Notes under the pieces: generated by a model
Database searches by the model: none
Told to the model about the DNA's origin: nothing
Seen by the model: only the letters and a program-made list of their open reading frames with translations
Virus record (IMG/VR): IMGVR_UViG_3300010965_000004
Coordinates: 44,708 to 108,707 of that record
DNA: 64,000 nucleotides
Strand: one strand, 5' to 3'
Source of the DNA: a virus
Lineage: Duplodnaviria > Heunggongvirae > Uroviricota > Caudoviricetes
Shown here: positions 3,561 through 54,046 of the stretch, piece after piece
Layout: each line of letters starts with the position of its first letter
Numbering within the stretch: the stretch's first letter is position 1
Made by a program: the position numbers and the translations under genes

Positions 3561-4695
3561 TTTCTTCTATTTCCACTGGAGTATTTTCTTTAATTGTACC
3601 AGCTTTTAAGGCATTGAGGCAATCTTGTTCAGTTTTAAATTTAACTATTTCTTGCTTATTATCATGTTCAGTCATAAACATTGACCCTAAGACAGCCTCG
3701 TGGCTTGGCATTATCATAGATTGGCCTAAACCACGTCTATAGTCATGGATTTGGTGCATAGGCAATAACTTGTTCTTAGCTTCCTGAACGGCTTCTGGAG
3801 TCATAGGAGTATGCAAGGTTAGCGCATCCCCGTCATAGTCCCCAGCAAACAGAGGCAAGTGCATTGGATTCAATCCCAATGTGCTACCATTGATAGGAAC
3901 AGGATAAACAGCCGTGATATTAGACTTCATTAGAGTCGGGGCTCTATTAATAATCAAAGGAATGTTTTTTATAACCTTGTTAAAACTATGCGTTGCAGCT
4001 GGAGTTCTTTCTGTCCAGGCTTTTTCAGAGTTAACGTAGTCATAGCCTTGTTTAGCCAAGTCACGCAGAATATGGAACTTGTACATCGTCCAAAGCATGT
4101 CTCTAGGAACAGCAGCTTCGTTAAATCCTAAGTTAGGTTCAGCGTAAATCGTCGCACGTCCAGAGAAGTCTTGTTTCTTAGAAAGAACCTTATTATGGAA
4201 CAGGCCAGTCTTAGGCCCGCCAGTTCCGGCGACTTGACGGAGAAGTCCTTTAACCCCTCTACCTTTGGCATTGGGAGAAATAGCTTCACCAAGTCCTACA
4301 ATTGCTTTAATACCGTTGTAAGCATCTGCTCGCTCTTTAACCAATTCGTCTGGATTCAAATGATCTATAACTTCTTTCAAGGAATTGTTAACGGTCATGT
4401 GATCTTTATACAGCTGGTTAATATCAGCAAACTCAATACGGTTCCCCCCCATTATAGTAGCTGGACGAACCTGTGGAGGAACCACCGGAAGATACTTAAG
4501 AATGTATGCTTCCTTAGCACTCAGTCCAGTATTTTTTAACCCGTTGAGGAACTTGATTCGTTTAACCAAGTCATCTTTCTTGGAGACAGACTTGACCGTT
4601 TTGATTTCTTCAATCAAAGCTGGCATCTTGGTTTCTGGTTTAACGTGAGAGAGCATTGCCGAAAAAGCATGGCCTCCAACTAATAGTTCTGACAT
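3538..4695 (-). CDS. rpoC: RNA polymerase beta' subunit, N-terminal catalytic module
   Basis: 385 aa; PLFAGDYDGDALTLH matches the beta' Mg-binding NADFDGDQM motif. Confidence 0.7.
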   Translation of the reverse strand: MSELLVGGHAFSAMLSHVKPETKMPALIEEIKTVKSVSKKDDLVKRIKFLNGLKNTGLSAKEAYILKYLPVVPPQVRPATIMGGNRIEFADINQLYKDHMTVNNSLKEVIDHLNPDELVKERADAYNGIKAIVGLGEAISPNAKGRGVKGLLRQVAGTGGPKTGLFHNKVLSKKQDFSGRATIYAEPNLGFNEAAVPRDMLWTMYKFHILRDLAKQGYDYVNSEKAWTERTPAATHSFNKVIKNIPLIINRAPTLMKSNITAVYPVPINGSTLGLNPMHLPLFAGDYDGDALTLHTPMTPEAVQEAKNKLLPMHQIHDYRRGLGQSMIMPSHEAVLGSMFMTEHDNKQEIVKFKTEQDCLNALKAGTIKENTPVEIEENDRKEKV

Positions 4696-6600
4696 TTAAA
4701 ATCCTAAGATTGTATCTAAATAAAGACCTAGTCCTGCTAACTTATTAAATCCTTGTGGATGAGCTTTAAACTCCCTAAAGGCGGCATTCACTTTAGCCAT
4801 AGTTTCAGGGTTTCCTCCCCTATCAGGATGATGTTTCATAGCCATTTTCTTATAATGCTTAGAAGCTTCTGCTTTAGTTTTAAATCCTCCAACAGGAGCC
4901 CCTAAATCTTTATAAATAGTCCCCATATCTTTAGGACCATTGGGATTTCCAAAACCCCTGGATCTTTGTTCATTATAATATTTGAAGAAGTCATTAAATT
5001 GAGGACCGGAACTAGAACCAGAAGCGGAGGCTTTATTCCTTGCCCTATTAATAGTCTGGTCAAAGTTTCTAGAGTATCTAGACCCAGGTTGCAATATCTT
5101 CTTCATGGTCTTTACCTTTGATAAATCCCTAGCTGTATTACCTCCTAGAAATGCACCTGCTACAGCGCCAGCAGCCGTTCCCCAAAGTTTTTCTTCTCGG
5201 GTAGTATCTCGTTCTACTGTTTTGAAATCTTTTTGTTCTGTTACTTTGCCCTGAGATAAAGCTGCTCCAGTAGCTCCTCCTGTTAACCCACCGATAATTC
5301 TACCGGCCAATACGGATTTGTTACCCATTCTTCTAGTTAAAGTATCTATTGCTTTTCTAGGATCTGCATAAACAGCTTTCTTTTCTATTGGAGTATCTTT
5401 ACCTTTCATTAAATGCAAGGCTAACGCTGAAGCTGCAACCCCGCTACCGTAAGATAACATATTTTTTGCTGCTACTCCTGTTAGGAATTTTTTCTTCATC
5501 GCGGAAGTACCATGTTGCTTAAGCATTTTGTACCCATGATAATTAGCAGCAGCTTCCCCTCTTAACATTGGGGCAGCAGTTATAATAGGAGCTGTCCAGG
5601 CATAGTCCTTTGTCTTATCATTTTGTAGCATTAAACCACCAGCCATCGCACCTAACCCCATTTTATGAGCTCTAGAGGATAGTCTATAACTTGTTTGTTT
5701 TAAAGAATTAACGAATTTTGATTTACCCTCAAAGTCTTTAGCATGGCCTAACTCATGCAAGGCTATATCTAAATTTCCTACCTTTTTACCAGTGAAGGGA
5801 CTCTTCATATTAATATAGTTCTTCTTCATAGGATTGTTAAAATGGTTACCTGCTTGTTCTTTCCACTCTTTAACCCCAGGTATATAATCTATAATGGACT
5901 TACTTGAAGTAAACTTTTTAAGGGAAGCTCTTACTTTATCATTAGCATATGCAGGACCTGACTTTGATAATATTTCATCAAATGCTTTAGCAGCGCCCCT
6001 ATTTCCACCAAAAGCTTTAGTAGATGAAAAAGTAGTATTTAAACCTTTGTTATCTTTAAGTATCTTTTTCCAAGTAGACTTATCAGTTCCTGGCTTCGAA
6101 TTCAAAGACGTTAAAACGGGTATAGCCCCTAGATTACTAGCAACAGCTCCTACCCCAACAGCACCAGCACCTTTTAAAGCACCAGCTACATAATCAGGTT
6201 TTTCTTTTTTCTCAGCAATCTTTTCCAAGTACTTATTCACATTAGCCTTTTTTTGCATATGATCCATCAAAGCATATCCCGCTGCTCCGCCTCCAGCAGC
6301 TCCAGCGGCTCCTCCTAAGATCTTTCCTGCTCGATAATGAGTTTGCAAACTTTTAACAGCATTTCGTAAGGCTTCTGTAGATCCTTCGGCATGAAAGTCA
6401 TTACCTTTAAGACTAGCAAAAGAAAGCCCTTTACCTACATTTTTAAACTGTTTGCGGGCTCCAATCCTCATTCCTATTCTACCACCTTTATTTCTTAAGG
6501 CCAACGCTCCTAAAGAGCCAAGCCCAATTCCTGCAACTACTTTAGGAAGAAAATCTTGACTTTCTTTCTCAGCAATCTTCTCTAGGTACTTATTCATCAA
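4696..6600 (-). CDS. J-domain protein with HExxH (zincin-like) motif and Gly-rich repeats
   Basis: 634 aa; C-terminal KHYKKMAMKHHPDRGGNPETMAKVNAAFRE = DnaJ J-domain with HPD; internal ALHELGHAKDF; duplicated N-terminal NKYLEKIAEK segments. Confidence 0.5.
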   Translation of the reverse strand: MMNKYLEKIAEKESQDFLPKVVAGIGLGSLGALALRNKGGRIGMRIGARKQFKNVGKGLSFASLKGNDFHAEGSTEALRNAVKSLQTHYRAGKILGGAAGAAGGGAAGYALMDHMQKKANVNKYLEKIAEKKEKPDYVAGALKGAGAVGVGAVASNLGAIPVLTSLNSKPGTDKSTWKKILKDNKGLNTTFSSTKAFGGNRGAAKAFDEILSKSGPAYANDKVRASLKKFTSSKSIIDYIPGVKEWKEQAGNHFNNPMKKNYINMKSPFTGKKVGNLDIALHELGHAKDFEGKSKFVNSLKQTSYRLSSRAHKMGLGAMAGGLMLQNDKTKDYAWTAPIITAAPMLRGEAAANYHGYKMLKQHGTSAMKKKFLTGVAAKNMLSYGSGVAASALALHLMKGKDTPIEKKAVYADPRKAIDTLTRRMGNKSVLAGRIIGGLTGGATGAALSQGKVTEQKDFKTVERDTTREEKLWGTAAGAVAGAFLGGNTARDLSKVKTMKKILQPGSRYSRNFDQTINRARNKASASGSSSGPQFNDFFKYYNEQRSRGFGNPNGPKDMGTIYKDLGAPVGGFKTKAEASKHYKKMAMKHHPDRGGNPETMAKVNAAFREFKAHPQGFNKLAGLGLYLDTILGF

Positions 6601-18898: not shown

Positions 18899-19070
18899 GC
18901 AATGAAACTGTACTTTACCCAAAAGCAGATGAGGTCATAAAGCTTTATCTCTCTGGAAATTGGGTTATTATTAGTAAGACAGATCAGTATAACCCTTTAA
19001 CCCCAGACTTACGCGGATGGGAAATTACTTGTAATGGTAACGTTACAGTACACCAGGATGGTATATGAAA
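18897..19070 (+). CDS. hypothetical small protein
   Basis: 57 aa, ATGA-coupled on both sides. Confidence 0.3.
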
Positions 19071-19631
19071 CAATACTTAGACGTAATGAAAACCATTTTA
19101 CTGAATGGTAGTGACTGGCAGGAGAATAGAACTGGTATTAGAACTAGGATGATACCCGGGGCTATGATGCAATTTAACCTAGCAGATGGATTTCCCGCAG
19201 TAACAACTAAGTGGTTAGCTTTTAACGCGGTTAAAGGGGAACTACTGGGATTTCTCCGTGGATACACCTCAGCAGCTCAATTCAGAGAACTTGGTTGTAA
19301 GATCTGGGATCAGAATGCTAATGAGAACGAAGCCTGGTTAAAGAATCCTAATCGTAAGGGGGAAGATGATCTTGGATACATCTATTCCAGACTCTGGAAT
19401 GATATGCCTCATGATTTGGTTACTAGCAAATGGAATCAAATTGATAGGCTTATTGATGGTATCAAAAAAGATCCAACCTCTCGCCGTTTAATTGTATCAG
19501 CTTGGCATCCAGAAGTTTTTGATCGTGCAGCGCTTCCACCATGTCATGCTCTATTCCAGGTCATCATTGAGCAGAGTACGAAGAAGATGCATATGACTAT
19601 GTATCAGCGCAGTTGTGATTTTTTCTTGGGT
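19065..19631 (+). CDS. thyA: thymidylate synthase, exon 1
   Basis: RTGIRTRMIPGAMMQFNL...VSAWHPEVFDRAALPPCHALFQ...YQRSCDFFLG; exon ends with U at 19631. Confidence 0.8.
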
Positions 19632-20611
19632 AAAGGTCTGCCCCTTTAAAGAGTAATCTTTATAGCAAATTTTTCTAAACGGTGAAACTCCAAATTGGAC
19701 AACCCCGTACTAACTTTAATATAACAAACTATCTATTTAATATGTTAAACTATAGTATAACTATAGGGTTTCATATGAATGGGTTTATTTATATAATTTT
19801 TAATACTGAAAATAAGAAGTATTACCTAGGATCAACTACTAATATTGAGACTAGATTTAAAATGCATCTTTGGAAATTAAAAAAAGGCGTACATCATTCT
19901 TTGCATTTACAAAATGCCTGGAATAAGTATGGTGAATCTTCTTTTGTATTTAAAGTATTATATGAATCAATGGATGTAAGATTAGATGAACAAAATGAAC
20001 TAAATCAGCTAGACTATAGCAAATCTTATAACATATCACGATCTGCTACAGGAGGGAATGATGCAGTTAAATTTCATCCTAATTATGAAGAAATAAAACA
20101 AAAAATATCAATTTCTAAGAAAGGGAAGATACCAACTAATAGAGTTGAGATTTCTGTTGATGGTATTATATATCCTTCCTATGCACATGCTAAAAACTCT
20201 TTAAATATACCTATAGTCACTATAAGATATAGATGCTTGTCTAAAAATTCTAAATTTGAAACTTGGTTTATTATGGGACGTAAAAAGGAAAAAGAGTCTT
20301 TGGTTAGACAGGGTTCAAAACATGGAACCCAAATTATATGTGATGAGAAAGAATTTGATTCGTATGCTGAGGCTGCTAGATTTTATAAATTAAGTATAAC
20401 AGCTATACAACATAGGGTTTCTTCAAAAAATTATCCAAATTTTATATTAAAAAATGTGTAACGACTATCGAACGCTTATAGCTAGTAGAGTACACCGAAG
20501 TCGGTGGAAACGGAAAACATCCTTCTAGGATGATGATATAGTCTGATCTATATAGTAATATATAGCTGCTTAATTGCGGGGTAAAATTAACGAATTTACC
20601 TGAACAAAGTG
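19632..20611 (+). mobile_element. group I intron in thyA
   Basis: ThyA continuity (..CDFFLG | VPFNIASY..) restored by removing ~980 nt; 3' core GATGATATAGTC resembles group I S/P7 element; intron ends in G. Confidence 0.65.
19775..20461 (+). CDS. GIY-YIG homing endonuclease (intron-encoded)
   Basis: MNGFIYIIFNTENKKYYLGSTTNIETRFKMH = GIY-YIG motif; inside thyA intron. Confidence 0.7.
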   Translation: MNGFIYIIFNTENKKYYLGSTTNIETRFKMHLWKLKKGVHHSLHLQNAWNKYGESSFVFKVLYESMDVRLDEQNELNQLDYSKSYNISRSATGGNDAVKFHPNYEEIKQKISISKKGKIPTNRVEISVDGIIYPSYAHAKNSLNIPIVTIRYRCLSKNSKFETWFIMGRKKEKESLVRQGSKHGTQIICDEKEFDSYAEAARFYKLSITAIQHRVSSKNYPNFILKNV

Positions 20612-20890
20612 GTACCTTTTAACATCGCCAGCTATGCTCTCTTATTGGAACTTATCTGCAGGGTTACTGGTTATACTCCCGGTGTCTTTACTTGGTTTGG
20701 GGCAGATGTACATCTGTACGAGAATCAACTAGACCAGACGAGAGAGCAGTTAAGCAGGGAACCTTTGCCACTTTCTAAATTAGATATTAGTAGGACGAGT
20801 TTTGCAACTCTAACAGAAATAGAACCAAGTGATGTGTACTTGTTTAATTATCAGCATCACCCAACTATTTCAGCACCTATGGCGGTTTAG
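20612..20890 (+). CDS. thyA: thymidylate synthase, exon 2
   Basis: VPFNIASYALLLELICR...GADVHLYENQLDQTREQLSREPLPLSKL matches ThyA C-terminus. Confidence 0.8.
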   Translation, partial: VPFNIASYALLLELICRVTGYTPGVFTWFGADVHLYENQLDQTREQLSREPLPLSKLDISRTSFATLTEIEPSDVYLFNYQHHPTISAPMAV

Positions 20891-21236: not shown

Positions 21237-21950
21237 ATGATTAAAAGCATCTCTGATCTTTCTTTAGATGAGATTACCTGGTTCACTGCAAAGATTGATG
21301 GGTTTACTTGGGCTAGAAACGGCTCAAAGAGAAGTGGTGATTCCTATAAACAAAAAGGGGAAAAGTCGGATTGGGAACTGGGTACTCGAGCTTTTATATG
21401 TAGATCCAAAGCTAAAGACTTGGATAAGAACATAAAGAACTGGGATGGCTGGTTCAGATCTGATCTTACAGAACCACTAGCAAAGGCTGCCTATTATGAC
21501 GTTCCTAAATATGTTACTTCTTGGGTAGATAGTGGTCCTCTTCTCGAGCAAGCTATGTTACGTGGTATGTTGATAGAGTCTATTGACTGGGACAGATACG
21601 ATAATTTACCTCGTTTCAAGGCATCATACAGTAAATGGGAAAATTGTTATCGTGGTAATACCTTTCTTGAAGCAGGGCTTCGTTGTTATATTGCATCCGT
21701 CTATGGGGAGGAACTCAGTGTTGACCAGTTTTATGATGCTCCACAAGTTCCGGTGTTTATAAAGATCGTCAAGACTTGCACGGGGAATAAGTTTCCATAC
21801 GGAAACCTCGGAAAAGAGAATGATGAGTTTGTAACTCAATTCCTTGGCTCAATTTTTCCGGCAGTTAGATCAAATATGAATTACTACAAGTTACCTAATG
21901 GTATGCTTGTTCATGTCTATAACTCTTTCGAGGTCAAAGTACCAAAATGA
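21237..21950 (+). CDS. hypothetical protein
   Basis: 237-aa ORF, ATGA-coupled to rnlA. Confidence 0.4.
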   Translation: MIKSISDLSLDEITWFTAKIDGFTWARNGSKRSGDSYKQKGEKSDWELGTRAFICRSKAKDLDKNIKNWDGWFRSDLTEPLAKAAYYDVPKYVTSWVDSGPLLEQAMLRGMLIESIDWDRYDNLPRFKASYSKWENCYRGNTFLEAGLRCYIASVYGEELSVDQFYDAPQVPVFIKIVKTCTGNKFPYGNLGKENDEFVTQFLGSIFPAVRSNMNYYKLPNGMLVHVYNSFEVKVPK

Positions 21951-23101
21951 AAATCAATAGCACACTTAAGCTTTATGAAAACCTGATGGATCTCTGTAAG
22001 ACAAGTGAGACTTTTTACTTTTCTGACCAAGGCCCGTACCGAGTTTTCAATTATCGTCTTGCTTCGTACTCAGACTGGCTTTTGTCTGATGCTTTGGAAG
22101 CTAGAGGGATAATGTATTATCTAGAAGACGGTAAAGAGCCTAAGCTTATTTGTCGCCCTTTCAAGAAGTTTTTCAACAGGGATGAAAATCCTTTGACGAT
22201 GAACTTGGATCTCTCCAGAGTGGTTAAGGCAGCTATCAAAGAGGATGGGTCTTTAATCACTTCTTTTATTGAACCTTATACTGGTAAGCTTAGAGTTAAG
22301 TCAAAGCAAAGCTTAACATCCGAGCAGGCGGTAATGGCTCAGGCTTTCCTGGATAGTCCAGAAAATCTTCGTTTAAAACTTGAGGTAGAAGACCTTACTG
22401 GGCCTGGCTATAAAACTGTAATGATGGAACTGGTTTCCCCGGCCAATCGTATTGTTTTAGAATACCCTAAAACCGAACTTAGGGTAATTGGGATACGAGA
22501 TACGGAAACAGGGGAGTTACTAGAACGAGACCAATTAGATCCGGTAGGTTTTAAAGAAGTTAGAAATCGTTGGGTATTCGAACAACATGGTTTCTTACAA
22601 AATCCTCCCGGAGGAAGTGCAGCTTTTGTTGAATCCGTAGCTGCTCAAGCAGGTATTGAAGGTTATGTCTTTACCCTTGAAGATGGAACAATGTTTAAGG
22701 AAAAGACCAACTGGTACAAGTCCTTGCATCACCTTAAAGACTCAGTAAGCTGCGAACGTTACTTATTCGACGCTATTATTGATGAAACAGTAGATGATGT
22801 TAAAACCATGTTCCGAACCGACGAGTTTACCATGAAGCGTATTACTGATATGGAAAACTTGGTTATTCCTAAGTTCAATTCTTTGATTAAGACTGTGGAG
22901 GATTTTTATGCTGCTCATGTTTTACTCGAAAGAAAAGAATACGCGATACTTGGTCAAAAAGAATTGGGTAACCTTTTCAATTTGGCAATGGGAAAATACA
23001 CGGGTAAAGGACTTAATTATAAGGACTTTGCTAAAAAGTACCGGAAAGAAGTTTTTGGTATCGGAGAGAAAGTTTATAACGAAGAAAATGGAGAAGATTG
23101 A
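21947..23101 (+). CDS. rnlA: RNA ligase 1 (T4 RnlA-like)
   Basis: 384 aa; LMDLCK, ASYSDWLLSDALEARGIMY, KFFNRDENPLTMNLDL, adenylylation motif KEDGSL, NRIVLEY - collinear with T4 Rnl1. Confidence 0.85.
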   Translation: MKINSTLKLYENLMDLCKTSETFYFSDQGPYRVFNYRLASYSDWLLSDALEARGIMYYLEDGKEPKLICRPFKKFFNRDENPLTMNLDLSRVVKAAIKEDGSLITSFIEPYTGKLRVKSKQSLTSEQAVMAQAFLDSPENLRLKLEVEDLTGPGYKTVMMELVSPANRIVLEYPKTELRVIGIRDTETGELLERDQLDPVGFKEVRNRWVFEQHGFLQNPPGGSAAFVESVAAQAGIEGYVFTLEDGTMFKEKTNWYKSLHHLKDSVSCERYLFDAIIDETVDDVKTMFRTDEFTMKRITDMENLVIPKFNSLIKTVEDFYAAHVLLERKEYAILGQKELGNLFNLAMGKYTGKGLNYKDFAKKYRKEVFGIGEKVYNEENGED

Positions 23102-23104
23102 TTA

Positions 23105-23527
23105 ATGAAAAAGCTGATATTGTTACGTGGTCTTCCAGGAAGTGGGAAGACTACGTTTGCGGAGTTCCTGTGTGACTTCCTTTTACCCGACTTACCTGTT
23201 TACTGCTTTGCTGCTGATGATTACTTCACAGATGAGGAAGGTAATTATAACTTTAAGGTTGACAAACTCGGAGCAGCTCATGCTCAATGCTTGAATAATA
23301 CCGTAAATATTATGCAGGATTGGAAATCTGGGGATGAGGCGGTAATCCTGGTTCACAACACCTTCACAACAGAGAAGGAATTGGAGCCCTACATTACTGC
23401 TGCTAATGGTTTCAAATTTGAAATCATTTCCATTGTCTTTGAAAATCGTCATGGTACAAAATCCGTACATAAGGTTCCCGATGAAGTCATGGGGAAAATG
23501 AAAAACCGATTTAAGGTGAGTTTATGA
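23105..23527 (+). CDS. pnk: polynucleotide kinase, 5'-kinase domain (separate ORF)
   Basis: MKKLILLRGLPGSGKTTFAEF P-loop, matches T4 Pnk N-terminus. Confidence 0.75.
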   Translation: MKKLILLRGLPGSGKTTFAEFLCDFLLPDLPVYCFAADDYFTDEEGNYNFKVDKLGAAHAQCLNNTVNIMQDWKSGDEAVILVHNTFTTEKELEPYITAANGFKFEIISIVFENRHGTKSVHKVPDEVMGKMKNRFKVSL

Positions 23528-23994
23528 AAAAGAGCGTAATATTTGATGTGGATGGGACTCTAGCAGATGCCAATCATCGCTTGCATTTCATTAAAGGTGA
23601 TAAAGATTCTGGTAAAAGGAATTGGGGAGCCTTTTTCAGGGAAGCGATAAAGGATAGTCCTTACGAGCATGTCAGATTAATGAATCACTTTTTTGATGAT
23701 GCTGGGTTCTTTATCTACTTGATTACTGGCCGCCCTTCTAATCTCAGAAAAGATACTGAAGATTGGTTAGCAAAACATAACATTCGCTATGATTCTTTAC
23801 TTATGAGACCGGCTACAGATCGTAGACCAGACTATGAATCTAAGAAGGATCTCTTTGTTCAAGAGGGTATCAATAAAGACGAAGTAGTTTGTGTATTTGA
23901 GGATCGTCTTCAAGTTGCCAAGATGTGGAAAGAACTTGGGCTCCAGGTTTGCGTCTGTGGTGAAGATTGGTTAATCGGGGATTGGAGTAAATAA
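23524..23994 (+). CDS. pnk: polynucleotide 3'-phosphatase domain (HAD; separate ORF)
   Basis: VIFDVDGTLA, LITGRPS, FEDRLQVAKMWKELGL match T4 Pnk C-terminal phosphatase; ATGA overlap with kinase ORF. Confidence 0.75.
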   Translation: MKKSVIFDVDGTLADANHRLHFIKGDKDSGKRNWGAFFREAIKDSPYEHVRLMNHFFDDAGFFIYLITGRPSNLRKDTEDWLAKHNIRYDSLLMRPATDRRPDYESKKDLFVQEGINKDEVVCVFEDRLQVAKMWKELGLQVCVCGEDWLIGDWSK

Positions 23995-28744: not shown

Positions 28745-29866
28745 ATGGAACGAAAACTCGTTACAGTAAGAACTGTTTCAGAGCTTGTGCCTATTGAGGG
28801 AGCCGATTTTATTGAAATCGCTAAAATCGATGGGTGGCAATGCGTAGTAAAGAAAGGTGAATTTGCAGTAGGAGAGAAAGGACTTTACTTTGAGATTGAC
28901 TCTTTTCTTCCTGAAGAGGATGAACGATTCAAATTCTTGGAAAAGAACTTTACCAACTATAAAAATAGGCGGGGCGCTCGTATTCGTACTATTAAGTTAA
29001 AGGGGCAACTTTCACAAGGATTGTTGCTTCCCTTAGAGGACTTCCCAGGTTTAATTCAGAAAAATTGGGGAGGAGTATTTGATGATAAGGATTATTCTGA
29101 ACAACTCAAGGTTACTAAGTGGGAACCACCAGAGGCTAATACCGGTGGTAACAACAAATTAACTTGGCTGGGAAGAAAAACCAAGAAGCTTAAATACACC
29201 TGGCTTAAGCCTTTCTTTAACTGGTTAGAGATTAGGTATCCTAACATATTTGCCAGGGGTGGATCCAGGAAGTTCCCTGACTATATACCTAAGACTGACG
29301 AAGAGCGAATTCAGAATCTAATCAATAAGTTAGATCGTACTTTTGATGAATTTTATGAAGCTACTGTTAAGCTAGATGGTTCCTCAATGACTGTTTACCA
29401 TAATCGTGGTAAAACTGGGGTTTGTTCCAGAAACTTTGAATTAGTTAAGGACCCAGAAAACAAGTATTGGGCAACCGCTTTAAAGTATAACATTCCCGAT
29501 GAGATTAAGAAACTGGGTATGAATATTGCAATTCAAGGTGAACTAATGGGCCCTGGTATTCAGGGGAATAAAGAGGGTTTAAAGACGTATGACTTCTTTG
29601 TTTATAAAATCTGGGATATTGACGCTCACGCTTACTTAAGTAATGTAAGACGGGATATAACCTGTGCTAATCTTGGATTAAAACAAGTACCTAGCCTTGG
29701 GTACCATCAGCTGAAAGAATTTCCGGATATTAATGCATTCTTAGCGTTCTCTGAGGGACCCTCACTTTGTTCTGAAATGAGAGAGGGAGTTGTATTCTCT
29801 AAGCTAGATTGCACTCATAGTTTCAAAGTGGTTTCTAATAGTTTTCTACTTAAATATAAGGAATGA
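28745..29866 (+). CDS. ATP-dependent RNA/DNA ligase (Rnl2/Rnl5-like nucleotidyltransferase)
   Basis: 373 aa; motif I ATVKLDGSS, motif IV EGVVFSKLD, IAIQGELMGPG; N-terminal extra domain. Confidence 0.6.
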   Translation: MERKLVTVRTVSELVPIEGADFIEIAKIDGWQCVVKKGEFAVGEKGLYFEIDSFLPEEDERFKFLEKNFTNYKNRRGARIRTIKLKGQLSQGLLLPLEDFPGLIQKNWGGVFDDKDYSEQLKVTKWEPPEANTGGNNKLTWLGRKTKKLKYTWLKPFFNWLEIRYPNIFARGGSRKFPDYIPKTDEERIQNLINKLDRTFDEFYEATVKLDGSSMTVYHNRGKTGVCSRNFELVKDPENKYWATALKYNIPDEIKKLGMNIAIQGELMGPGIQGNKEGLKTYDFFVYKIWDIDAHAYLSNVRRDITCANLGLKQVPSLGYHQLKEFPDINAFLAFSEGPSLCSEMREGVVFSKLDCTHSFKVVSNSFLLKYKE

Positions 29867-31118: not shown

Positions 31119-31185
31119 AGTTAGATGTCTCTATAAAATCCGGACTGCCCTTTGGGTGGTGGAATAATCCGGCACGAAGACCACT

Positions 31186-31270
31186 ATCCTTTGGGTCTTC
31201 AAAAAATGATCGTAAACCTTTCCAAGGAAAGGTCTGTTGGACGCGGGTTCGACTCCCGCCAGCTCCACCA
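31186..31270 (+). ncRNA. ssrA: tmRNA acceptor piece (3' tRNA-like half: T-arm + 3' acceptor strand + CCA)
   Basis: GGACGCGGGTTCGACTCCCGCCAGCTCCACCA near-identical to the E. coli tmRNA 3' end; lies upstream of the GGGGCUG 5' end, so the gene is permuted. Confidence 0.6.
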
Positions 31271-31353
31271 AAAAAACCTAGATTGGCTTAGTTGGCTAAA
31301 GCTAATTTTCTAAACTACGTGTAAGTCGTAGTGCCTGTTAGGGTTTTTCTGAT

Positions 31354-31640
31354 GGGGCTGTACCTGGTTTCGACAGCGGATTGATGTACGAAGAGTAGGC
31401 GATCCGAGGGGCATTCCTCGTAAAAATAGCAAATGCAATAAATGCCGCTAATGATAGCAGCTTCGCCCAGGTCCGCCTCGCGGCCTGATAGGTGAATGGG
31501 GTAGCCACTCTAATATCCAATAGCATAGGTATACTATGCGTTGGTGTGTTAGCCTTATTAACCAAAGGTGGCAACAATTCTACTCTGTATCTGCCGAGGG
31601 GAACCGTTCAACGAACAATAAATCTTCGTTGTTACCAAGT
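31354..31640 (+). ncRNA. ssrA: tmRNA coding piece (5' acceptor strand GGGGCUG, tag reading frame, pseudoknot region); 3' boundary approximate
   Basis: GGGGCTGTACCTGGTTTCGAC...; CTCGTAAAAATAGCAAAT then GCA AAT GCA ATA AAT GCC GCT AAT GAT AGC AGC TTC GCC CAG GTC CGC CTC GCG GCC TGA = ANAINAANDSSFAQVRLAA*; G3:U70 with acceptor piece. Confidence 0.55.
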
Positions 31641-31949
31641 CGGCGGCGTCATAACCAGGAACTAGCAATCCTGTACGCCATAGGTTGTCACGGCAATAGC
31701 TGTTGCAGAGGGAAAAACGTAACCCCTTTTTCATGCCTAAAAAGGTTTTAGATAGGGACTTCACGAAAAGTCGGGGCCAAACCAAAGGACCTACAACTAT
31801 TGAGGGCTGGAACTCCCTTTCTTAGGAAAACGTCGCTTACGTCCAGGTAAGAGGAGGAAATGTTTTTAACCTTCGCTCTTAGCAAATCCTCACCTGATTA
31901 TAGTGTAGTACCTATCTAAAACCTTTTCTCAATGCCCTAGTTGCTAAAC

Positions 31950-31972
31950 TGGTATAAGCAATGTTTATGAGC
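31950..31972 (+). promoter_or_regulatory. conserved phage promoter
   Basis: TGGTATAAGCAATGTTTATGAG; structured leader before GTG 32079. Confidence 0.4.
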
Positions 31973-32078
31973 ACTCAAGCAAAGGTCGACTGCTGCTTGA
32001 GGATCTCGGGATGTTTGCCGACGGGCATGGAGGTTCGATTCCTCTCTAGGGCAGCCTAACAATCACAGGAGAAAAAAT

Positions 32079-35338: not shown

Positions 35339-35373
35339 GCCCGAGTGGGGAAATTGGTAAACCCAGCGGACTT
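35339..35373 (+). tRNA. tRNA-Leu(UAA) 5' exon (acceptor, D-arm, anticodon stem 5' strand through U34)
   Basis: GCCCGAG-T-G-GGG-AAATTGGTAAA-CCC-A-GCGGA-CTT; pairs with 3' exon at 36110-36159. Confidence 0.7.
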
Positions 35374-36109
35374 TACTTCTTTTGTAAATTTTATGTTAAA
35401 ATATGTGTATACCTAAAAGGAACACATATGGAAAGTTTAATTTGCAAAGAATGCGGTGATCAAAGAGAATCTGGTAGACGTTTATGTAAAAAATGTAATT
35501 CACGGAGGATAAATTCCTATCCAAGATACACTTGGACAAAAGAATGTCCTGCTTGCAAAAATGAATTTCAAGCTTGGAGAAAACATCAGTTATTATGTGT
35601 GGGTTGTTATAGATTATCCGACGAACTAAGGTCGAAATCTTTAAGCACAAATAATTATGTCTATCTGAAGCAGCCCGGAAGAACCGAACATAGATTTATT
35701 GCAGAAACTGTACTGGGACGTAGCTTACAAACTAATGAGCTAGTTCATCATATTGATGATAACCCAAAAAACAATGATGTAATAAATTTACTGATTTTGG
35801 ATAGAAGGGCACATGGTCGGTTACATAGGTATCTTGATCAGCAAAGAGTCATATTGGAGAAATCCAATAGTGAGAATTTCGAGAATTGCTGGAAAGCCCT
35901 TATAGCTCCTATGACTACAACATGGTTGGAAACGACGGGTGTGAAAGTTATAAAACTATGGGAGATTGGGTAATCAGCAGCCGAGCCTCTAAAGTGAAAA
36001 CAATGGGGAAGGTTCAGAGACTATGCACGAAATACCTGACCATTTAGTTGAAGGTAATGATATAGTCCAGACTACAACAGAAATGGCTAATGAAAATTAG
36101 AGTAGTAGG
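35374..36109 (+). mobile_element. group I intron in anticodon loop of tRNA-Leu(UAA) (between U34 and A35)
   Basis: exons assemble into a perfect type II tRNA; intron 3' core GTTCAGAGACTATG (R-like) and AATGATATAGTCC (S/P7), terminal G. Confidence 0.7.
35428..35973 (+). CDS. HNH homing endonuclease (intron-encoded)
   Basis: 181 aa; N-terminal Cys clusters; ELVHHIDDNPKNNDVINLLILDRRAHGRLH HNH motif. Confidence 0.65.
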   Translation: MESLICKECGDQRESGRRLCKKCNSRRINSYPRYTWTKECPACKNEFQAWRKHQLLCVGCYRLSDELRSKSLSTNNYVYLKQPGRTEHRFIAETVLGRSLQTNELVHHIDDNPKNNDVINLLILDRRAHGRLHRYLDQQRVILEKSNSENFENCWKALIAPMTTTWLETTGVKVIKLWEIG

Positions 36110-36159
36110 AAAATCCGCCGCCTTTTGGCTTACCGGTTCGATTCCGGTCTCGGGCACCA
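36110..36159 (+). tRNA. tRNA-Leu(UAA) 3' exon
   Basis: AAAA-TCCGC-var arm-ACCGGTTCGATTCCGGT-CTCGGGC-A-CCA; TCCGC pairs with GCGGA, CTCGGGC with GCCCGAG. Confidence 0.7.
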
Positions 36160-43325: not shown

Positions 43326-43403
43326 CTGCCAGTAGCTCAGCTGGACAAGAGCAGGGGGCTTCTATCCCCAAGGTCGGGAGTTCGAATCTCTCTTGGCAGG
43401 CCA
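43326..43403 (+). tRNA. tRNA-Arg(UCU)
   Basis: CTGCCAG acceptor; TAGCTCAGCTGGACAAGAGC; anticodon loop CTTCTAT; GGGAGTTCGAATCTCTC; CCA. Confidence 0.65.
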
Positions 43404-44298: not shown

Positions 44299-44757
44299 AT
44301 GATATATTGCCCAGGATGTAAATTAGAAAAAGAAAGAATAGAATTTCATAATAATAAAAGTCGTCCTAATGGGTTATCTTGTTATTGTAAACTCTGTACC
44401 AGCATAAATAATAGACAGAGAAGAGGTTTACCGGAATCTTCTATTAGACAACGAAGTGCTTTTATTAAATGGAAATATGGTATTTCACAAGAAGAATACT
44501 TAAAATTATTAAAAGCCCAAGATTTCAAATGTGCTATTTGTAAAACTCCACATGAAGAGGTTAGGAGACCAGGTAATCTAAAGCATGATGGGGTTTCATA
44601 TGGTCTTTGTATAGATCATAATCACATAACCAATAAAGTTAGAGGGCTTCTTTGCAATCAATGTAATAGAGCCCTCAGGTTGTTTAAAGATAATTTAGAA
44701 TTTCTTCAAAATGCTATAGAATACCTAAATACTACAGGAGAAAGAGATGCATCATAA
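44299..44757 (+). CDS. HNH endonuclease, T4 endonuclease VII-like
   Basis: 152 aa; CIDHNHITNKVRGLLCNQCNRALRLF matches the endo VII DHDH..GxVRGLLCxxCN motif. Confidence 0.6.
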   Translation: MIYCPGCKLEKERIEFHNNKSRPNGLSCYCKLCTSINNRQRRGLPESSIRQRSAFIKWKYGISQEEYLKLLKAQDFKCAICKTPHEEVRRPGNLKHDGVSYGLCIDHNHITNKVRGLLCNQCNRALRLFKDNLEFLQNAIEYLNTTGERDAS

Positions 44758-47387: not shown

Positions 47388-47451
47388 TTGGTTTCCTCAA
47401 ATTTAAAACCAAATGATATCACACCTATATTTAAATTCCAAGCTTTTAATT

Positions 47452-47475
47452 TGGTATAAGAACAATGTAGAGAAA
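47452..47475 (+). promoter_or_regulatory. conserved phage promoter
   Basis: TGGTATAAGAACAATGTAGAGAAATAC. Confidence 0.5.
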
Positions 47476-47476
47476 T

Positions 47477-47545
47477 ACTTAAATAGCTAATTGGTTAAGC
47501 GCAACTAACGTTGAGTAATAGGTTCGAATCCTATATTAGGTATAG
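47477..47545 (+). other. tRNA-derived fragment (D-arm-like + T-arm, no anticodon arm)
   Basis: TAGCTAATTGGTTAAGC D-arm-like, ATAGGTTCGAATCCTAT T-arm, ATTAGGT 3' strand; middle folds only as CAAC-TAAC-GTTG. Confidence 0.25.
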
Positions 47546-47576
47546 CCCGTGAGGGCAATTCTTTTATCCCAAACCA

Positions 47577-47651
47577 GGGTGTATAGTTCAGGGGTAGAAC
47601 ACAGGACTCATAATCCTTAGGTCCCTGGTTCGAAACCAGGTGCACCCACCA
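47577..47651 (+). tRNA. tRNA(CAU) Met or Ile2 (second copy)
   Basis: GGGTGTA acceptor; anticodon loop CTCATAA; CCTGGTTCGAAACCAGG; CCA. Confidence 0.65.
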
Positions 47652-47669
47652 AATTTTAGACGAGGTTAT

Positions 47670-47828
47670 ATGACCGAAGATCAATTCCAAGCTTTATTGC
47701 ATTATATCGACCTCAAGGTAAGCTACGAAAAAAGGGCCTCTGCCTTGGGCTTCTTAGCTCTTGACGTTGCTGAAAGAGAACTCAGAGAACTTCTGGTCCC
47801 AAAATTGGTAAGTAGCTCAGTGGGATAA
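47670..47828 (+). CDS. hypothetical small protein
   Basis: 52 aa from ATG 47670 (RBS GACGAGG); 3' end overlaps tRNA-like gene. Confidence 0.3.
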   Translation: MTEDQFQALLHYIDLKVSYEKRASALGFLALDVAERELRELLVPKLVSSSVG

Positions 47829-47889
47829 TAGAGCGCGTGGAGAGATTCTAGATAACCACGAGGTCGTTGGTTCGAGTCCAACCTTACCA
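47805..47889 (+). tRNA. aberrant tRNA-like gene with 15-nt anticodon loop and no encoded CCA
   Basis: perfect stems TGGTAAG/CTTACCA, GCTC/GAGC, CGTGG/CCACG, GTTGG-TTCGAGT-CCAAC; anticodon loop AGAGATTCTAGATAA. Confidence 0.4.
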
Positions 47890-47907
47890 TTATTAATTGA
47901 GGTAACT

Positions 47908-48159
47908 ATGTTTCGTAAATTACTCTGCTGGCTTGGTAGTCACGGCCCCAATTGGCATGGCAACGAAAGTTGTAAAGCCAGTTCCCGCGATGGGAACGTT
48001 CCCTTCAATAGAACATGTTTGTTCTGTGGGGAAGTATGGTACGGTACCCAGGTTTATGGTCGTTATACACGCTACCTTGGGGATTGGAAAACGAAACAAC
48101 AACTGATAGCTACCGGCGAATGGAGGGAGCTTACTAAACATAAGGAGAAGCCATGTTAA
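47908..48159 (+). CDS. hypothetical Cys-containing protein
   Basis: 83-aa ORF, RBS GAGG. Confidence 0.4.
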   Translation: MFRKLLCWLGSHGPNWHGNESCKASSRDGNVPFNRTCLFCGEVWYGTQVYGRYTRYLGDWKTKQQLIATGEWRELTKHKEKPC

Positions 48160-48467
48160 AACCTGGTGACTTAGTAATGATAGTGAAACCCAGGGAATGT
48201 TGTGGTAGTACTAATACCTTGGGAGCAATACGAACAGTTTCTGACAGACTTCCCAGTGATGAAGCAATGTGCAGAACATGTGGTTTTATTAGTAAAACTG
48301 AAGGGTATATTCCCCTTAATGACAACACTGTTTGCGAGTCCAGTCGTCTCAAGAAAATCGAGCCGGGTAATGGAGTTGACGAAATAATCCGCATTGCTGG
48401 CCTTCCAAAGAAAATACCAAGGAAGAAGCTAATTTTTCACCTAGATCCTAAGAGGTTAGCCTTTTGA
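48153..48467 (+). CDS. hypothetical protein
   Basis: 104 aa, overlapping start. Confidence 0.4.
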   Translation: MLKPGDLVMIVKPRECCGSTNTLGAIRTVSDRLPSDEAMCRTCGFISKTEGYIPLNDNTVCESSRLKKIEPGNGVDEIIRIAGLPKKIPRKKLIFHLDPKRLAF

Positions 48468-49186
48468 AAATCCTGTCCAAATTCCAAGACTACTACGATT
48501 CAGCCCTGGCCTTTGGACAGGACGAAAGCATAGTCTTTAAAAGATTCAAAGAGGAATCAGAGTTAGGTAAAGATGAAAAGATTCCTTTTGATCTTCCCCT
48601 AAAATGTCCATGCAATGATCGTTGGTTTGCCGGATTTGATAAGCATTTACCCAATTGCTATCTTTCCAATTTTGTAATTGCTTTTTGTGGAAAGCTCTAT
48701 TATGGGGTAAGATTGGAATACTCCTTCATGTCAAAGGAAGGTATTACCACTTCTGAAGGTACTCAGCATTTTTACTCTAAGGAATCATTTGACAAATTCC
48801 TTTTAAGTAAAGGAGTTAAGAGTAAAGAACAAAAGAAAAGTTTTGTTCCTTTCTGGGAAAAGAAAGTTCCTTTGGGATATCTAGAAGACCAAGGATCTGA
48901 GGAGTTGAAAGAAAAGCTTATTGAAAACAAAGTCGTGGTGGCGTCTTGCATAGAACCTTCAGCTTTATATTTAGGAGGTAAAATCTTCACCCTCAACCCT
49001 CGCCTCAAAGACTTTGACTTTATCAAGATGGTTGACCCTTATACCGCCTACCAAGAACTCAGCATGTATATAGGCGGAATTTTAGCCCCAGAGTCAAAGC
49101 CAATGATTCAAGTTTCAGATAAGGATCGGGTTCAGCAACATGGATTCGATAAGTGGAGTTTCAGAAAAATGCCTGAGAAAATGTAA
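48464..49186 (+). CDS. hypothetical protein
   Basis: 240 aa, ATGA-coupled. Confidence 0.45.
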   Translation: MKILSKFQDYYDSALAFGQDESIVFKRFKEESELGKDEKIPFDLPLKCPCNDRWFAGFDKHLPNCYLSNFVIAFCGKLYYGVRLEYSFMSKEGITTSEGTQHFYSKESFDKFLLSKGVKSKEQKKSFVPFWEKKVPLGYLEDQGSEELKEKLIENKVVVASCIEPSALYLGGKIFTLNPRLKDFDFIKMVDPYTAYQELSMYIGGILAPESKPMIQVSDKDRVQQHGFDKWSFRKMPEKM

Positions 49187-52547: not shown

Positions 52548-52666
52548 TTCATCGTTGTTGTTGCTGTGACCGAGAAGGTGTATAACCCACTTTCTTTACT
52601 TAGCTTTATCGTTTTGCCACAGTAGCTTCAATAGTGTTCCAGTAATAAAAGAAGCAACTCTAAACT

Positions 52667-52764
52667 CAGATTGGTCCCTGGTTCAATCCCAGGCAAGCCC
52701 GCAAAAAGTCTTGGCAATAGCTAGGGTTTTTCGTGGGCTTGTAGCTCAGTGGTAGAGCAATTTG
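52667..52764 (+). ncRNA. tRNA-like gene 'Y' in permuted order: 3' half (anticodon 3' strand, T-arm, 3' acceptor) upstream of 5' half (acceptor, D-arm, anticodon 5' strand)
   Basis: CAGAT-TGGTC-CCTGGTTCAATCCCAGG-CAAGCCC then 33 nt then GGGCTTG-TA-GCTCAGTGGTAGAGC-A-ATTTG; acceptor 7/7 plus extra AAAAA/TTTTT pairing. Confidence 0.4.
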
Positions 52765-52810
52765 TTCACTTGTCCCCGAAGAGTTGTCTATCTAAAAACG
52801 AGGAATGCGA

Positions 52811-53023
52811 AAACTCATAAACCTGCTGGTTCGAGTCCAGCCTTCCCCACAAAGAGCCCCGCCGCCGCAGTACCCAACATCTTAGCGTTCGACCCCGGTC
52901 TATAAGACACTCCTCCAAGAGGATACCTTCGGGCTACGAGCTAAGTAACTTGAGTTTCGCCTGCGGCTGGGTTCTTTGTGGGGAAGTAGACAAATTGGTA
53001 AAGTCAACTATTATTGAAATAGT
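52811..53023 (+). ncRNA. tRNA-like gene 'X' in permuted order with 14-bp extended acceptor helix and ~120-nt structured intervening loop
   Basis: GCTGG-TTCGAGT-CCAGC-CTTCCCCACAAAGA ...120 nt... TCTTTGTGGGGAAG-TA-GAC-AAATTGGTAAA-GTC-A-ACTAT-TATTGAA-ATAGT; perfect 14-bp pairing; inner GCCGCAG/CTGCGGC helix. Confidence 0.4.
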
Positions 53024-53956: not shown

Positions 53957-54046
53957 GCGGGTGTGGCAGAGCCTGGTTTATTGCACCTGCCTTCCAAGCA
54001 GGAGGTGTTAACTCATCCACGAGTTCGAATCTCGTCACCCGCTCCA
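53957..54046 (+). tRNA. type II tRNA with anticodon loop CTTCCAA (anticodon UCC by position); identity uncertain, Sec/Ser-like architecture
   Basis: GCGGGTG/CACCCGC acceptor, 3-4 bp D-stem with long loop, CCTGC-CTTCCAA-GCAGG, 16-nt variable arm, ACGAGTTCGAATCTCGT, U73 + CCA; loop differs by one base from tRNA-Sec CTTCAAA. Confidence 0.45.

Follow-up and report, generated by a model that had tools for sequence, protein, structure and literature searches.

A tRNA-shaped gene with a 15-nucleotide anticodon loop in a phage tRNA array is a putative non-decoding tRNA mimic

The stretch of viral DNA analysed here, referred to below as the window, comprises 64,000 nucleotides (nt) of IMG/VR record IMGVR_UViG_3300010965_000004 (positions 44,708 to 108,707) and carries a transfer RNA (tRNA) array. 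One element of this array, at 47806-47890, has the complete fold of a tRNA but an anticodon loop of 15 nt, ends without an encoded CCA and is almost certainly unable to read codons. As it passes a test for the canonical fold (stems of 7, 4, 5 and 5 base pairs (bp) together with the tertiary bases) but fails the one for the loop, we do not file it as a tRNA. The reading we favour, with a probability of about one half, is that the element is a putative non-decoding tRNA mimic, which would undergo tRNA processing and be retained on account of its top half, either as a decoy or as a processing signal.

A previous, sequence-only reading of this DNA had described a tRNA-like gene with perfectly paired stems, and so it is: all 21 stem pairs are Watson-Crick (0 of 42 stem bases broken), and the bases of the tertiary contacts are complete (U8, A14, G18G19, G53-T54-T55-C56 and A58). 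The arms, given in Table 1, are joined by TA behind the acceptor stem, by a single G before the anticodon arm and by the variable loop AGGTC before the T arm; the D loop is long, and TATTAA follows T47890. Only the start had been placed one base too early, at 47805, which is an unpaired T. The Rfam tRNA model (RF00005) scores the element at 47.8 bits (E = 6e-9, gathering score 29) and aligns the anticodon loop as a 15-nt insert, just as the loop length had been given. Our own covariance model, trained on 14 other class-I tRNAs with the element excluded from training, gives 59.6 bits (E = 2e-19), a value in the middle of the range of the window's real tRNAs and far above chance expectation. Default ARAGORN run on the window does not report the element. 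With relaxed limits, a check proposed in the sequence-only reading, the program does call it, but the call is meaningless, namely a forced Thr(cgt) with a 5-nt intron.

The absence of CCA sets the element apart even more sharply than had been stated, when it was contrasted with "almost every" tRNA of the array. All 22 canonical tRNAs of the window encode CCA, whereas none of its three aberrant tRNA-likes (the element and two others) does, so that by the rule of the genome's own tRNAs the element fails, with T-TAT behind its acceptor stem. The contrast is a selective one: this TTAT matches no G/N-CCA of the other tRNAs, while every stem base is intact.

The loop itself (AGAGATTCTAGATAA) contains no 7-nt frame with U33 and a purine at position 37 (R37) that would be in register with the stem. 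Only two 7-mers within it have U33 and R37, UUCUAGA (anticodon CUA, amber) and AUUCUAG (anticodon UCU), and both lie out of register. Folded alone, the anticodon arm forms its 5-bp stem and an open loop without internal structure. As an in-register frame of U33, anticodon and purine 37 is missing, the ribosome almost certainly cannot read the element, and synthetases that depend on the anticodon will not charge it. A search of the window for a partner complementary to the loop gave 5 matches against 4.3 expected, no better than chance, and neither TCTAGA nor CTAG is unusual for this genome.

A tRNA with a micro-insertion was among the candidates of the sequence-only reading, and as a description of the 8 surplus nucleotides this is true. 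Such an insertion, however, is not removable: none of the eight possible contiguous 8-nt deletions, when enumerated, leaves U33 together with a purine at position 37, which rules out a tRNA with a short intron. A protein-spliced intron is ruled out as well, since there is no bulge-helix-bulge motif, the loop is open in folding and no canonical loop results from removal; among the ~60 window open reading frames (ORFs) that were scanned, we found no splicing endonuclease, nor a CCA-adding enzyme or a Ro/TROVE protein. A group I intron would need at least ~200 nt and a P1-P9 core, and the Rfam group I model matches the window only at 35823-36090. Intron-containing tRNAs, whether of the bulge-helix-bulge or the bacterial group I type, thus have extra sequence inside the anticodon loop in common with the element, and differ from it in being spliceable to a normal loop.

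According to the reading we favour, the element would be transcribed together with its neighbours in the array, RNase P would cut before 47806, and a 3' nuclease would trim after 47890. Enzymes of tRNA processing require the acceptor/T-arm helix and the elbow, not the anticodon. Because the arms, the anticodon stem and the bases of the L-fold are intact, the RNA should fold and be processed like a tRNA; CCA addition, if any, would come only from a host enzyme. The product would then persist as a mimic that displays the top half and elbow of a tRNA without decoding. On one hand, it could draw away proteins that bind tRNAs or cut them, as a competitor or a decoy. As the phage carries a T4-type tRNA repair kit, the first targets to think of are defence nucleases of the host that cleave tRNAs. 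The competitor role also has its appeal in view of what the phage spends on tRNA repair, spare tRNAs, a transfer-messenger RNA (tmRNA) and a YrlA-like mimic. On the other hand, the element might be a processing signal that separates the flanking small genes and punctuates the transcript ahead of the small gene downstream.

Comparable tRNA look-alikes exist in the arrays of other phages, with acceptor, D and T arms intact, the anticodon arm aberrant and no CCA. One family, which we call F, comprises 38 IMG/VR loci (L053 9565-9637, L052 10035-10107 and 36 more, L055-L095) and reads TGATAAG-TA-GCTC-AGTTGGGAGAAA-GAGC-G-CACT-ACAAA-AGTG-AGGTC-GGTGG-TTCGAGT-CCACT-CTTATCA-C. Its acceptor is TGATAAG/CTTATCA with U1-A72, its D loop has 12 nt like that of the element, a 4-bp stem with a 5-nt loop stands as anticodon arm, and CCA is absent; ARAGORN mislabels it as tRNA-Cys(ACA). 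Between the two subgroups of this family the tRNA-like is 95.9% identical, its 3 differences being confined to D loop and mini loop, and the upstream tRNA-Met does not differ at all (100%), while the neighbouring AAA gene is down to 58.7% protein and 70.8% nucleotide identity and the downstream DNA is unrelated. T-stem substitutions within the family preserve pairing. Across diverged phages, the tRNA-like has thus been conserved to the same degree as the tRNA-Met next to it, which means that selection can act on elements of this kind. A leader of ~110 nt, 88% conserved, and the tRNA-Met precede the tRNA-like of family F. In one subgroup an RNA ligase lies 650 nt downstream of the tRNA-like, and in the other an AAA_33/KTI12-like kinase with an HD domain lies upstream of it.

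Family G was found in three near-identical phage contigs (L038=L048, L043=L050 and L047=L049). Its tRNA-likes have the form GATTAAG...CTTAAT(C/T), lack CCA and share their T arm with the element. Identity among the three contigs amounts to 97-100% over the 129 nt upstream and over either half of the tRNA, but their anticodon regions, namely a 17-nt loop, an 18-nt stemless stretch and a 3-bp mini hairpin, show no relation in either sequence or length. The stemless version (AGGGTGTAATAGCTGGGG) is kept in two different tRNA bodies, the second of which, the L048/L039 paralog, differs in its T arm and carries the string TGGTAAG...CTTACCA in its acceptor. We thus attribute the swaps of the anticodon region to exchange between paralogs at shared D-arm sequence.

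A search with the D and T consensus and an expanded anticodon region gave 23 loci with 17 distinct sequences, which are heterogeneous. An unannotated tRNA-like lies in a 336-nt gap of the published tRNA array of Bacillus phage vB_BcoS-136 (MH884508.1 55363-55434 = L120 1468-1539); it has the element's T arm, a 7-nt loop CAGATAA with A33 and 51.3 bits in our own model, and its acceptor pairs only when 4 extra bases are looped out. The same T arm occurs in three further tRNA-like cores (L044 841-909 (-), L046 187-261 (-) and L051 3265-3337 (+)), in which the loop is devoid of U33 (AACCAAT, CGGAAAA) or a GCAA tetraloop closes a 6-bp stem. L044 and L046 have, in place of the acceptor stem, a long outer helix of distant flanks, with an extra 5' hairpin (z = -3.7, L046).

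Taken over the window element, family F, family G and one real tRNA-Asn, the acceptor and T stems pair in 180 of 180 cells (15 distinct sequences), and 5 of the 12 pairs vary on both sides; the search pattern fixed part of the 5' strand, not the 3' acceptor strand. Families F and G and the vB_BcoS-136 tRNA-like have in common with the element a consensus D arm, the variable loop, the T arm (identical in G and vB_BcoS-136), acceptors of the form xxxTAAG/CTTAxxx, a location in an array and the lack of CCA. They differ from it in the anticodon arm, which is 4-bp/5-nt, stemless, with a 17-nt loop, or with A33 in a 7-nt loop. Since it lies in a tRNA array of a phage, has its acceptor, D and T arms intact, cannot decode with its anticodon arm and lacks CCA, the element can be counted with the non-decoding tRNA-likes of phages. 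These are an informal and heterogeneous group, defined by likeness and not by established common descent. Our literature searches found no published description of such phage tRNA-likes. The sequence-only reading had listed a decoy or processing element among its candidates; this is the direction we favour, given the comparable phage tRNA-likes and their conservation in one lineage.

By analogy, the element appears to work most like the non-translating tRNA mimics, such as the YrlA domain and tRNA-Other, and it belongs to none of those families. With the canonical elongator tRNA (RF00005) it shares the cloverleaf of 7/4/5/5-bp stems, U8, A14, G18G19, the T loop TTCGAGT and the variable loop AGGTC. 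From this tRNA and from the tRNA-Asn(GTT) of Acinetobacter phage fJoAci01 it differs by a loop of 15 instead of 7 nt, a T instead of a G discriminator, the lack of CCA and a D loop longer by 4 nt. The T4 species 1/2 RNAs, rnaC/rnaD, have a length of ~140 nt and no known function; their genes belong to the tRNA cluster of the phage, and translation makes no use of them. B. cereus tRNA-Other is a non-translating pseudo-tRNA, chromosomal and with a loop of normal size (PMC3399842). Both are, like the element, tRNA-shaped or encoded in a tRNA cluster, and neither has a sequence relationship to it.

The tRNA-like domain of YrlA (RF02553; Chen et al. 2014, PMC4201824) mimics a tRNA without decoding; its D and T arms are conserved, a free CCA is lacking, and phages, too, have members of the family. 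It is permuted, with the T arm first, then a closed acceptor hairpin and the D arm, and its "anticodon stem" runs into a Ro-binding helix, whereas in the element the arms follow each other as in a normal tRNA gene, the acceptor ends are open and the anticodon arm is closed. RF02553 does not match the element at E <= 10. The window does contain a YrlA-like permuted mimic elsewhere, at 52663-52766 (+), made of a T arm CCTGG-TTCAATC-CCAGG, a hairpin CAAGCC/GGCTTG closed by ~35 nt and then a D arm; its RF02553 score is 31.4 bits, below the gathering score of 69. A "tRNA with a 49-nt insert" at 52735-52849 (+) reuses the D arm of this module together with a second T arm. A YrlA-like match was also seen in L046, at 652-716.

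We compared the body of the element with known tRNAs. When 50,697 phage records were searched by blastn, the fJoAci01 tRNA-Asn(GTT) was the best match over the full length, followed by other tRNA-Asn genes, all with weak E-values. The acceptors of the two are TGGTAAG in the element and TGCTAAG in the tRNA-Asn, both have U1-A72, the variable loop is identical and the T arm nearly so. The anticodon stem of the element equals that of one normal IMG/VR tRNA-Asn. Within the window, the nearest bodies are those of Phe, Ile and Ala. Bacterial asparaginyl-tRNA synthetase recognises its tRNA by the GUU anticodon and the G73 discriminator. A tRNA-Asn identity is therefore ruled out, despite U1-A72 and the Asn-like body, since GTT occurs nowhere in the loop and the discriminator is T, as against G in every tRNA-Asn compared (four first, others added). 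The eight 3' bases of the loop (CTAGATAA) resemble an Ile-type CTGATAA loop with one extra base, a likeness that was judged against the loop CAGATAA of the vB_BcoS-136 tRNA-like. The body thus seems to resemble Asn/Ile-type phage tRNAs, and its isotype of origin is uncertain because the acceptor and T arm are Asn-like, the loop remnant CT(A)GATAA is Ile-like and the discriminator is T.

The combination of the element's T arm and acceptor had no match in bacterial and archaeal genomes (GTDB, 185,579 species, two scans), and therefore the element is not a recent copy of a host tRNA. A DNA pattern search with T arm and acceptor gave 0 matches, and so did a pattern of the loop motif and T loop. 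In IMG/VR, a pattern of the anticodon stem with its loop left variable returned only normal tRNAs that have this stem, some non-tRNA matches and the contigs L003/L007, with the element itself absent; INPHARED blastn gave only generic tRNA similarity. The only other copy was found in Logan ERR2583788, 100% identical over 14.4 kilobases (kb), so there is no population variation. A synteny search with the neighbouring gene of 240 amino acids (aa; 48464-49186) gave homologues of at most 51% identity and no relative of the element; the closest contigs for this gene (L034-L037) have a group-I-intron tRNA or no tRNA upstream. In place of the element, L034 has at positions 1-213, upstream of the closest relative of the 240-aa gene (51% identity), a tRNA 3' exon with CCA, which is preceded by the 3' end of a group I intron (GATATAGTC motif).

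Several of these observations weigh against a mimic that is kept by selection. The likeness of the element to families F and G amounts to ~80-85%, in parts that are common to all class-I tRNAs. The anticodon arms of the comparable elements share nothing, being mini hairpins, a GNRA-capped stem, no stem at all or loops of 8-17 nt, and a specific role of the 15-nt loop is therefore less likely. No relatives of the element were found in IMG/VR, JGI metagenome contigs, GTDB genomes or INPHARED, so that it is a singleton. The repair set lies 24 kb away. Finally, a missing CCA where every working tRNA encodes it is also what one would expect of a dead gene, and family G shows that chimeras of such kind can arise accidentally, by paralog recombination.

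The strongest alternative, less probable than the mimic but quite possible, is indeed a dead tRNA gene, in which a one-step recombination or insertion would have replaced the anticodon loop and the 3' tail of an Asn/Ile-type tRNA too recently for the stems to have decayed. Its RNA may still be made and processed, with nothing depending on it. Besides the lost CCA and the singleton status, this fits the 3' part of the loop, which looks like a damaged CTGATAA, and the other tRNA-likes of the window, which are more degenerate (e.g., three acceptor mismatches at 52735-52849). It also fits family G, where the odd anticodon region is found again in a paralog with a different body and D-arm exchange makes chimeras. 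Homing endonuclease genes are dense in the window's tRNA array, and double-strand breaks and their repair should be frequent there for this reason. The sequence-only reading had taken the good stems as an argument against random decay, which is reasonable but not decisive, as recombination between paralogs makes such chimeras in one step. What speaks for the retained mimic instead is that not a single stem base is disrupted and the tertiary bases are all kept, that a comparable non-decoding element is conserved in family F like the neighbouring tRNA-Met, and that useless DNA is usually purged from phage genomes.

We consider it improbable that the element is a pro-tRNA, in which an endonuclease (an anticodon nuclease of the host or some phage enzyme not yet known) would trim the loop after transcription, and the kinase/phosphatase and Rnl1 ligase of the phage would join the ends into a working tRNA, possibly the missing Asn or an Ile species. 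T4 Pnkp and Rnl1 are capable of tRNA splicing chemistry. The window encodes the full T4-type set for healing and sealing and a second RNA ligase, its array covers all amino acids except Asn, and the body of the element is Asn-type, with an acceptor and T arm like those of the fJoAci01 tRNA-Asn; moreover, the loop contains a direct repeat, AGAT..AGAT. All this is opposed by the enumerated 8-nt removals, by the lack of a bulge-helix-bulge motif in a loop that does not fold, and by the T discriminator and the absence of GTT noted above. An apparent precedent in phages was the IMG/VR contig L007 (= L003), where tRNAs Arg-UCU, Asn-GUU and Ile-UAU (2405-2511, 4477-4566 and 4567-4649) have inserts of 33, 16 and 10 nt directly after position 37. 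These tRNAs lack CCA and stand in a glycosyltransferase context, with a tandem repeat of the tRNA 3' part after the first. We dropped them, as they look like eukaryote-type introns in a giant-virus-like contig and provide no phage precedent.

Direct decoding is the least probable of all. Frameshift suppressor tRNAs are known with loops of 8-9 nt that present a 4-base anticodon. The sequence-only reading had proposed a frameshift or suppressor-type tRNA, and suppressor tRNAs are known in large phages (theta-ribozyme preprint); an inner UUCUAGA, on a stem that is prolonged by partly non-canonical pairing and ends in an A-U pair, would have to suppress amber codons, or the element would have to act like a tRNA-Arg(UCU) or shift the frame, and the proposal is unlikely in that both in-loop frames are out of register, the anticodon would stand ~3-4 layers too far from the elbow for the ribosome (judging from established tRNA geometry), and G occupies position 37, whereas A is usual for anticodons ending in A. 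A frameshift suppressor is ruled out by the loop length: the sufD/sufJ-type and recoded-phage suppressor tRNAs also have an enlarged loop, with CUA readable in one loop frame of the element, but their known loops are of 8-9 nt and in register. A needed amber suppressor is ruled out too, as the 64-kb window has no signal of TAG recoding. ORFs cover 83% of it with the standard code and 87% with TAG read as sense, a gain similar to that for other stops, and TAG terminates 16 of 91 ORFs, including genes of 262-295 aa. A normal tRNA-Arg(UCU) is present at 43326.

A broader idea follows from the putative mimic, and we hold it only as a speculation that is distinctly unlikely at present, namely that large phages may carry an undescribed class of "anticodon-less" tRNA decoys with the window element as one member. 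In such a class the top half and elbow would be under selection, and the anticodon arm would be free to shorten, enlarge or swap between paralogs. It could serve to titrate or mislead nucleases of host defence that are directed at tRNAs, or other factors that bind tRNA, and in this way it would complement the tRNA repair enzymes and spare tRNAs of phages. Phage tRNA genes are now viewed as counter-measures against host tRNA-cutting nucleases, and if phages keep non-decoding tRNA-shaped RNAs, these would be a second, decoy-type arm of the same conflict. A decoy function would also explain genes that standard tRNA finders skip or mislabel, such as the element and the "tRNA-Cys(ACA)" of family F. 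Gaps in phage tRNA arrays can hide structured RNAs, and "missing" isotypes are not inferable from tRNA finders alone. If, on the other hand, the element is a mere relic, it illustrates how tRNA genes are reshuffled by recombination at D- and T-arm sequences in arrays rich in homing endonucleases. The wider pattern of non-decoding tRNA look-alikes, conserved in one lineage, merits a systematic survey.

The element closes a non-coding block of 520 nt (47388-47907), which consists of a weak promoter-like site, a mini tRNA-like, a tRNA-Met, a 154-nt spacer and the element itself (Table 1). This setting, with a gene that has a ribosome-binding site directly behind the element, speaks in favour of the mimic. 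The promoter-like consensus has 5 sites against 3.1 expected and is thus suggestive only. The mini tRNA-like has normal D and T arms, an acceptor pairing at 6 of 7 positions and, as anticodon arm, a 4-bp stem with a 4-nt loop (CAAC TAAC GTTG), which resembles the mini arms of family F; it lies 35 nt before the tRNA-Met. No significant structure was found in the 154-nt spacer and the flanks (z = -0.46 and -0.18). The element's overlap with a small ORF, pointed out in the sequence-only reading, is mechanically true, but the status of this ORF as a gene is unsupported, as it is not called in the identical public contig L031 and no homologue was found. No homologue was found for the 83-aa ORF downstream either. 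The whole tRNA array spans 34.5 to 54 kb of the window. The window is part of a 108.7-kb JGI contig and comes from a large phage. Its genes for a multisubunit RNA polymerase are split, and it encodes a ribonucleotide reductase with best matches in uncultured phages of 640-735 kb.

Table 1. Coordinates and supporting evidence for the element, its surroundings, the tRNA repair genes and the family G tRNA-likes
Feature	Position	Strand	Description	Basis or remark
tRNA-like gene (the element)	47806..47890	+	85 nt including discriminator T47890; no CCA after	Rfam, own covariance model, sequence
Acceptor stem, 5' strand TGGTAAG	47806..47812	+	pairs with 47883-47889 CTTACCA, 7/7; U1-A72	Rfam alignment pairs likewise
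D arm	47815..47834	+	GCTC 47815-47818, 12-nt loop AGTGGGATAATA 47819-47830 with G18G19, GAGC 47831-47834	sequence, Rfam alignment
Anticodon arm	47836..47860	+	5-bp stem CGTGG 47836-47840 / CCACG 47856-47860 around the 15-nt loop	sequence, Rfam, folding
15-nt loop	47841..47855	+	no in-register 7-nt U33/R37 frame	enumeration
T arm	47866..47882	+	GTTGG 47866-47870, TTCGAGT 47871-47877, CCAAC 47878-47882	sequence, Rfam; identical in other phages' aberrant tRNA-likes
Promoter-like site	47402..47431	+	upstream of the mini-tRNA-like/tRNA-Met/element unit	weak consensus match
Mini tRNA-like	47477..47542	+	aberrant, no CCA	Rfam 37.6 bits; own model 28.6 bits
tRNA-Met(CAT)	47577..47651	+	canonical, encoded CCA; 154 nt upstream of the element
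Mechanical ORF	47671..47831	+	52 aa from ATG (47640/47671 starts); ends in the element's D loop	probably not a gene
Downstream small gene	47908..48159	+	83 aa, GAGG ribosome-binding site; starts 18 nt after the element	orphan
T4-type tRNA repair set	21947..23994	+		context only, not part of the element
Rnl1-like ligase	21947-23101	+		Pfam PF09511+PF20819
P-loop kinase	23105-23527	+		Pfam PF13671
PNKP-type phosphatase	23524-23994	+		Pfam PF25109
Second RNA ligase	28745-29866	+	PHA02142 OB domain	domain match
Family G tRNA-likes	L048 2689-2773 and ~4909-4985; L047 3731-3803; L050 1868-1936	(-) for L050		paralog exchange

Some further features of the window were recorded along the way. A thymidylate synthase gene is split (19065-20890 (+)) into exon 1 at 19065-19649 (profile 1-175) and exon 2 at 20609-20890 (profile 176-266), the two being separated by an I-TevI-like GIY-YIG endonuclease ORF (19682-20461), an arrangement known from the td intron of T4; at this site, the group I model of Rfam stays below threshold. 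A tRNA-Leu(UAA) at 35339-36152 (+), unreported by ARAGORN, carries a ~740-nt group I intron at the classic U34/A35 site, the exons being 35339-35371 (5') and ~36112-36152 (3', with CCA), and the intron has an HNH endonuclease ORF. A permuted, two-piece-type tmRNA lies at 31178-31579 (+) and has the tag AANDSSFAQVRLAA. About 350 nt downstream of it there is a tRNA-like of 124 nt (31933-32056 (+), Rfam tRNA 32 bits) with an 8-bp acceptor, a long hairpin where the anticodon arm would be, a variable arm and a T arm of normal form. In bacteria, a long variable arm is normal only for Leu, Ser and Tyr tRNAs, but the tRNA-Gly(UCC) at 53957-54046 (+) combines a Gly-type acceptor (G1-C72, C2-G71, G3-C70, U73, CCA) with a variable arm of 16 nt.

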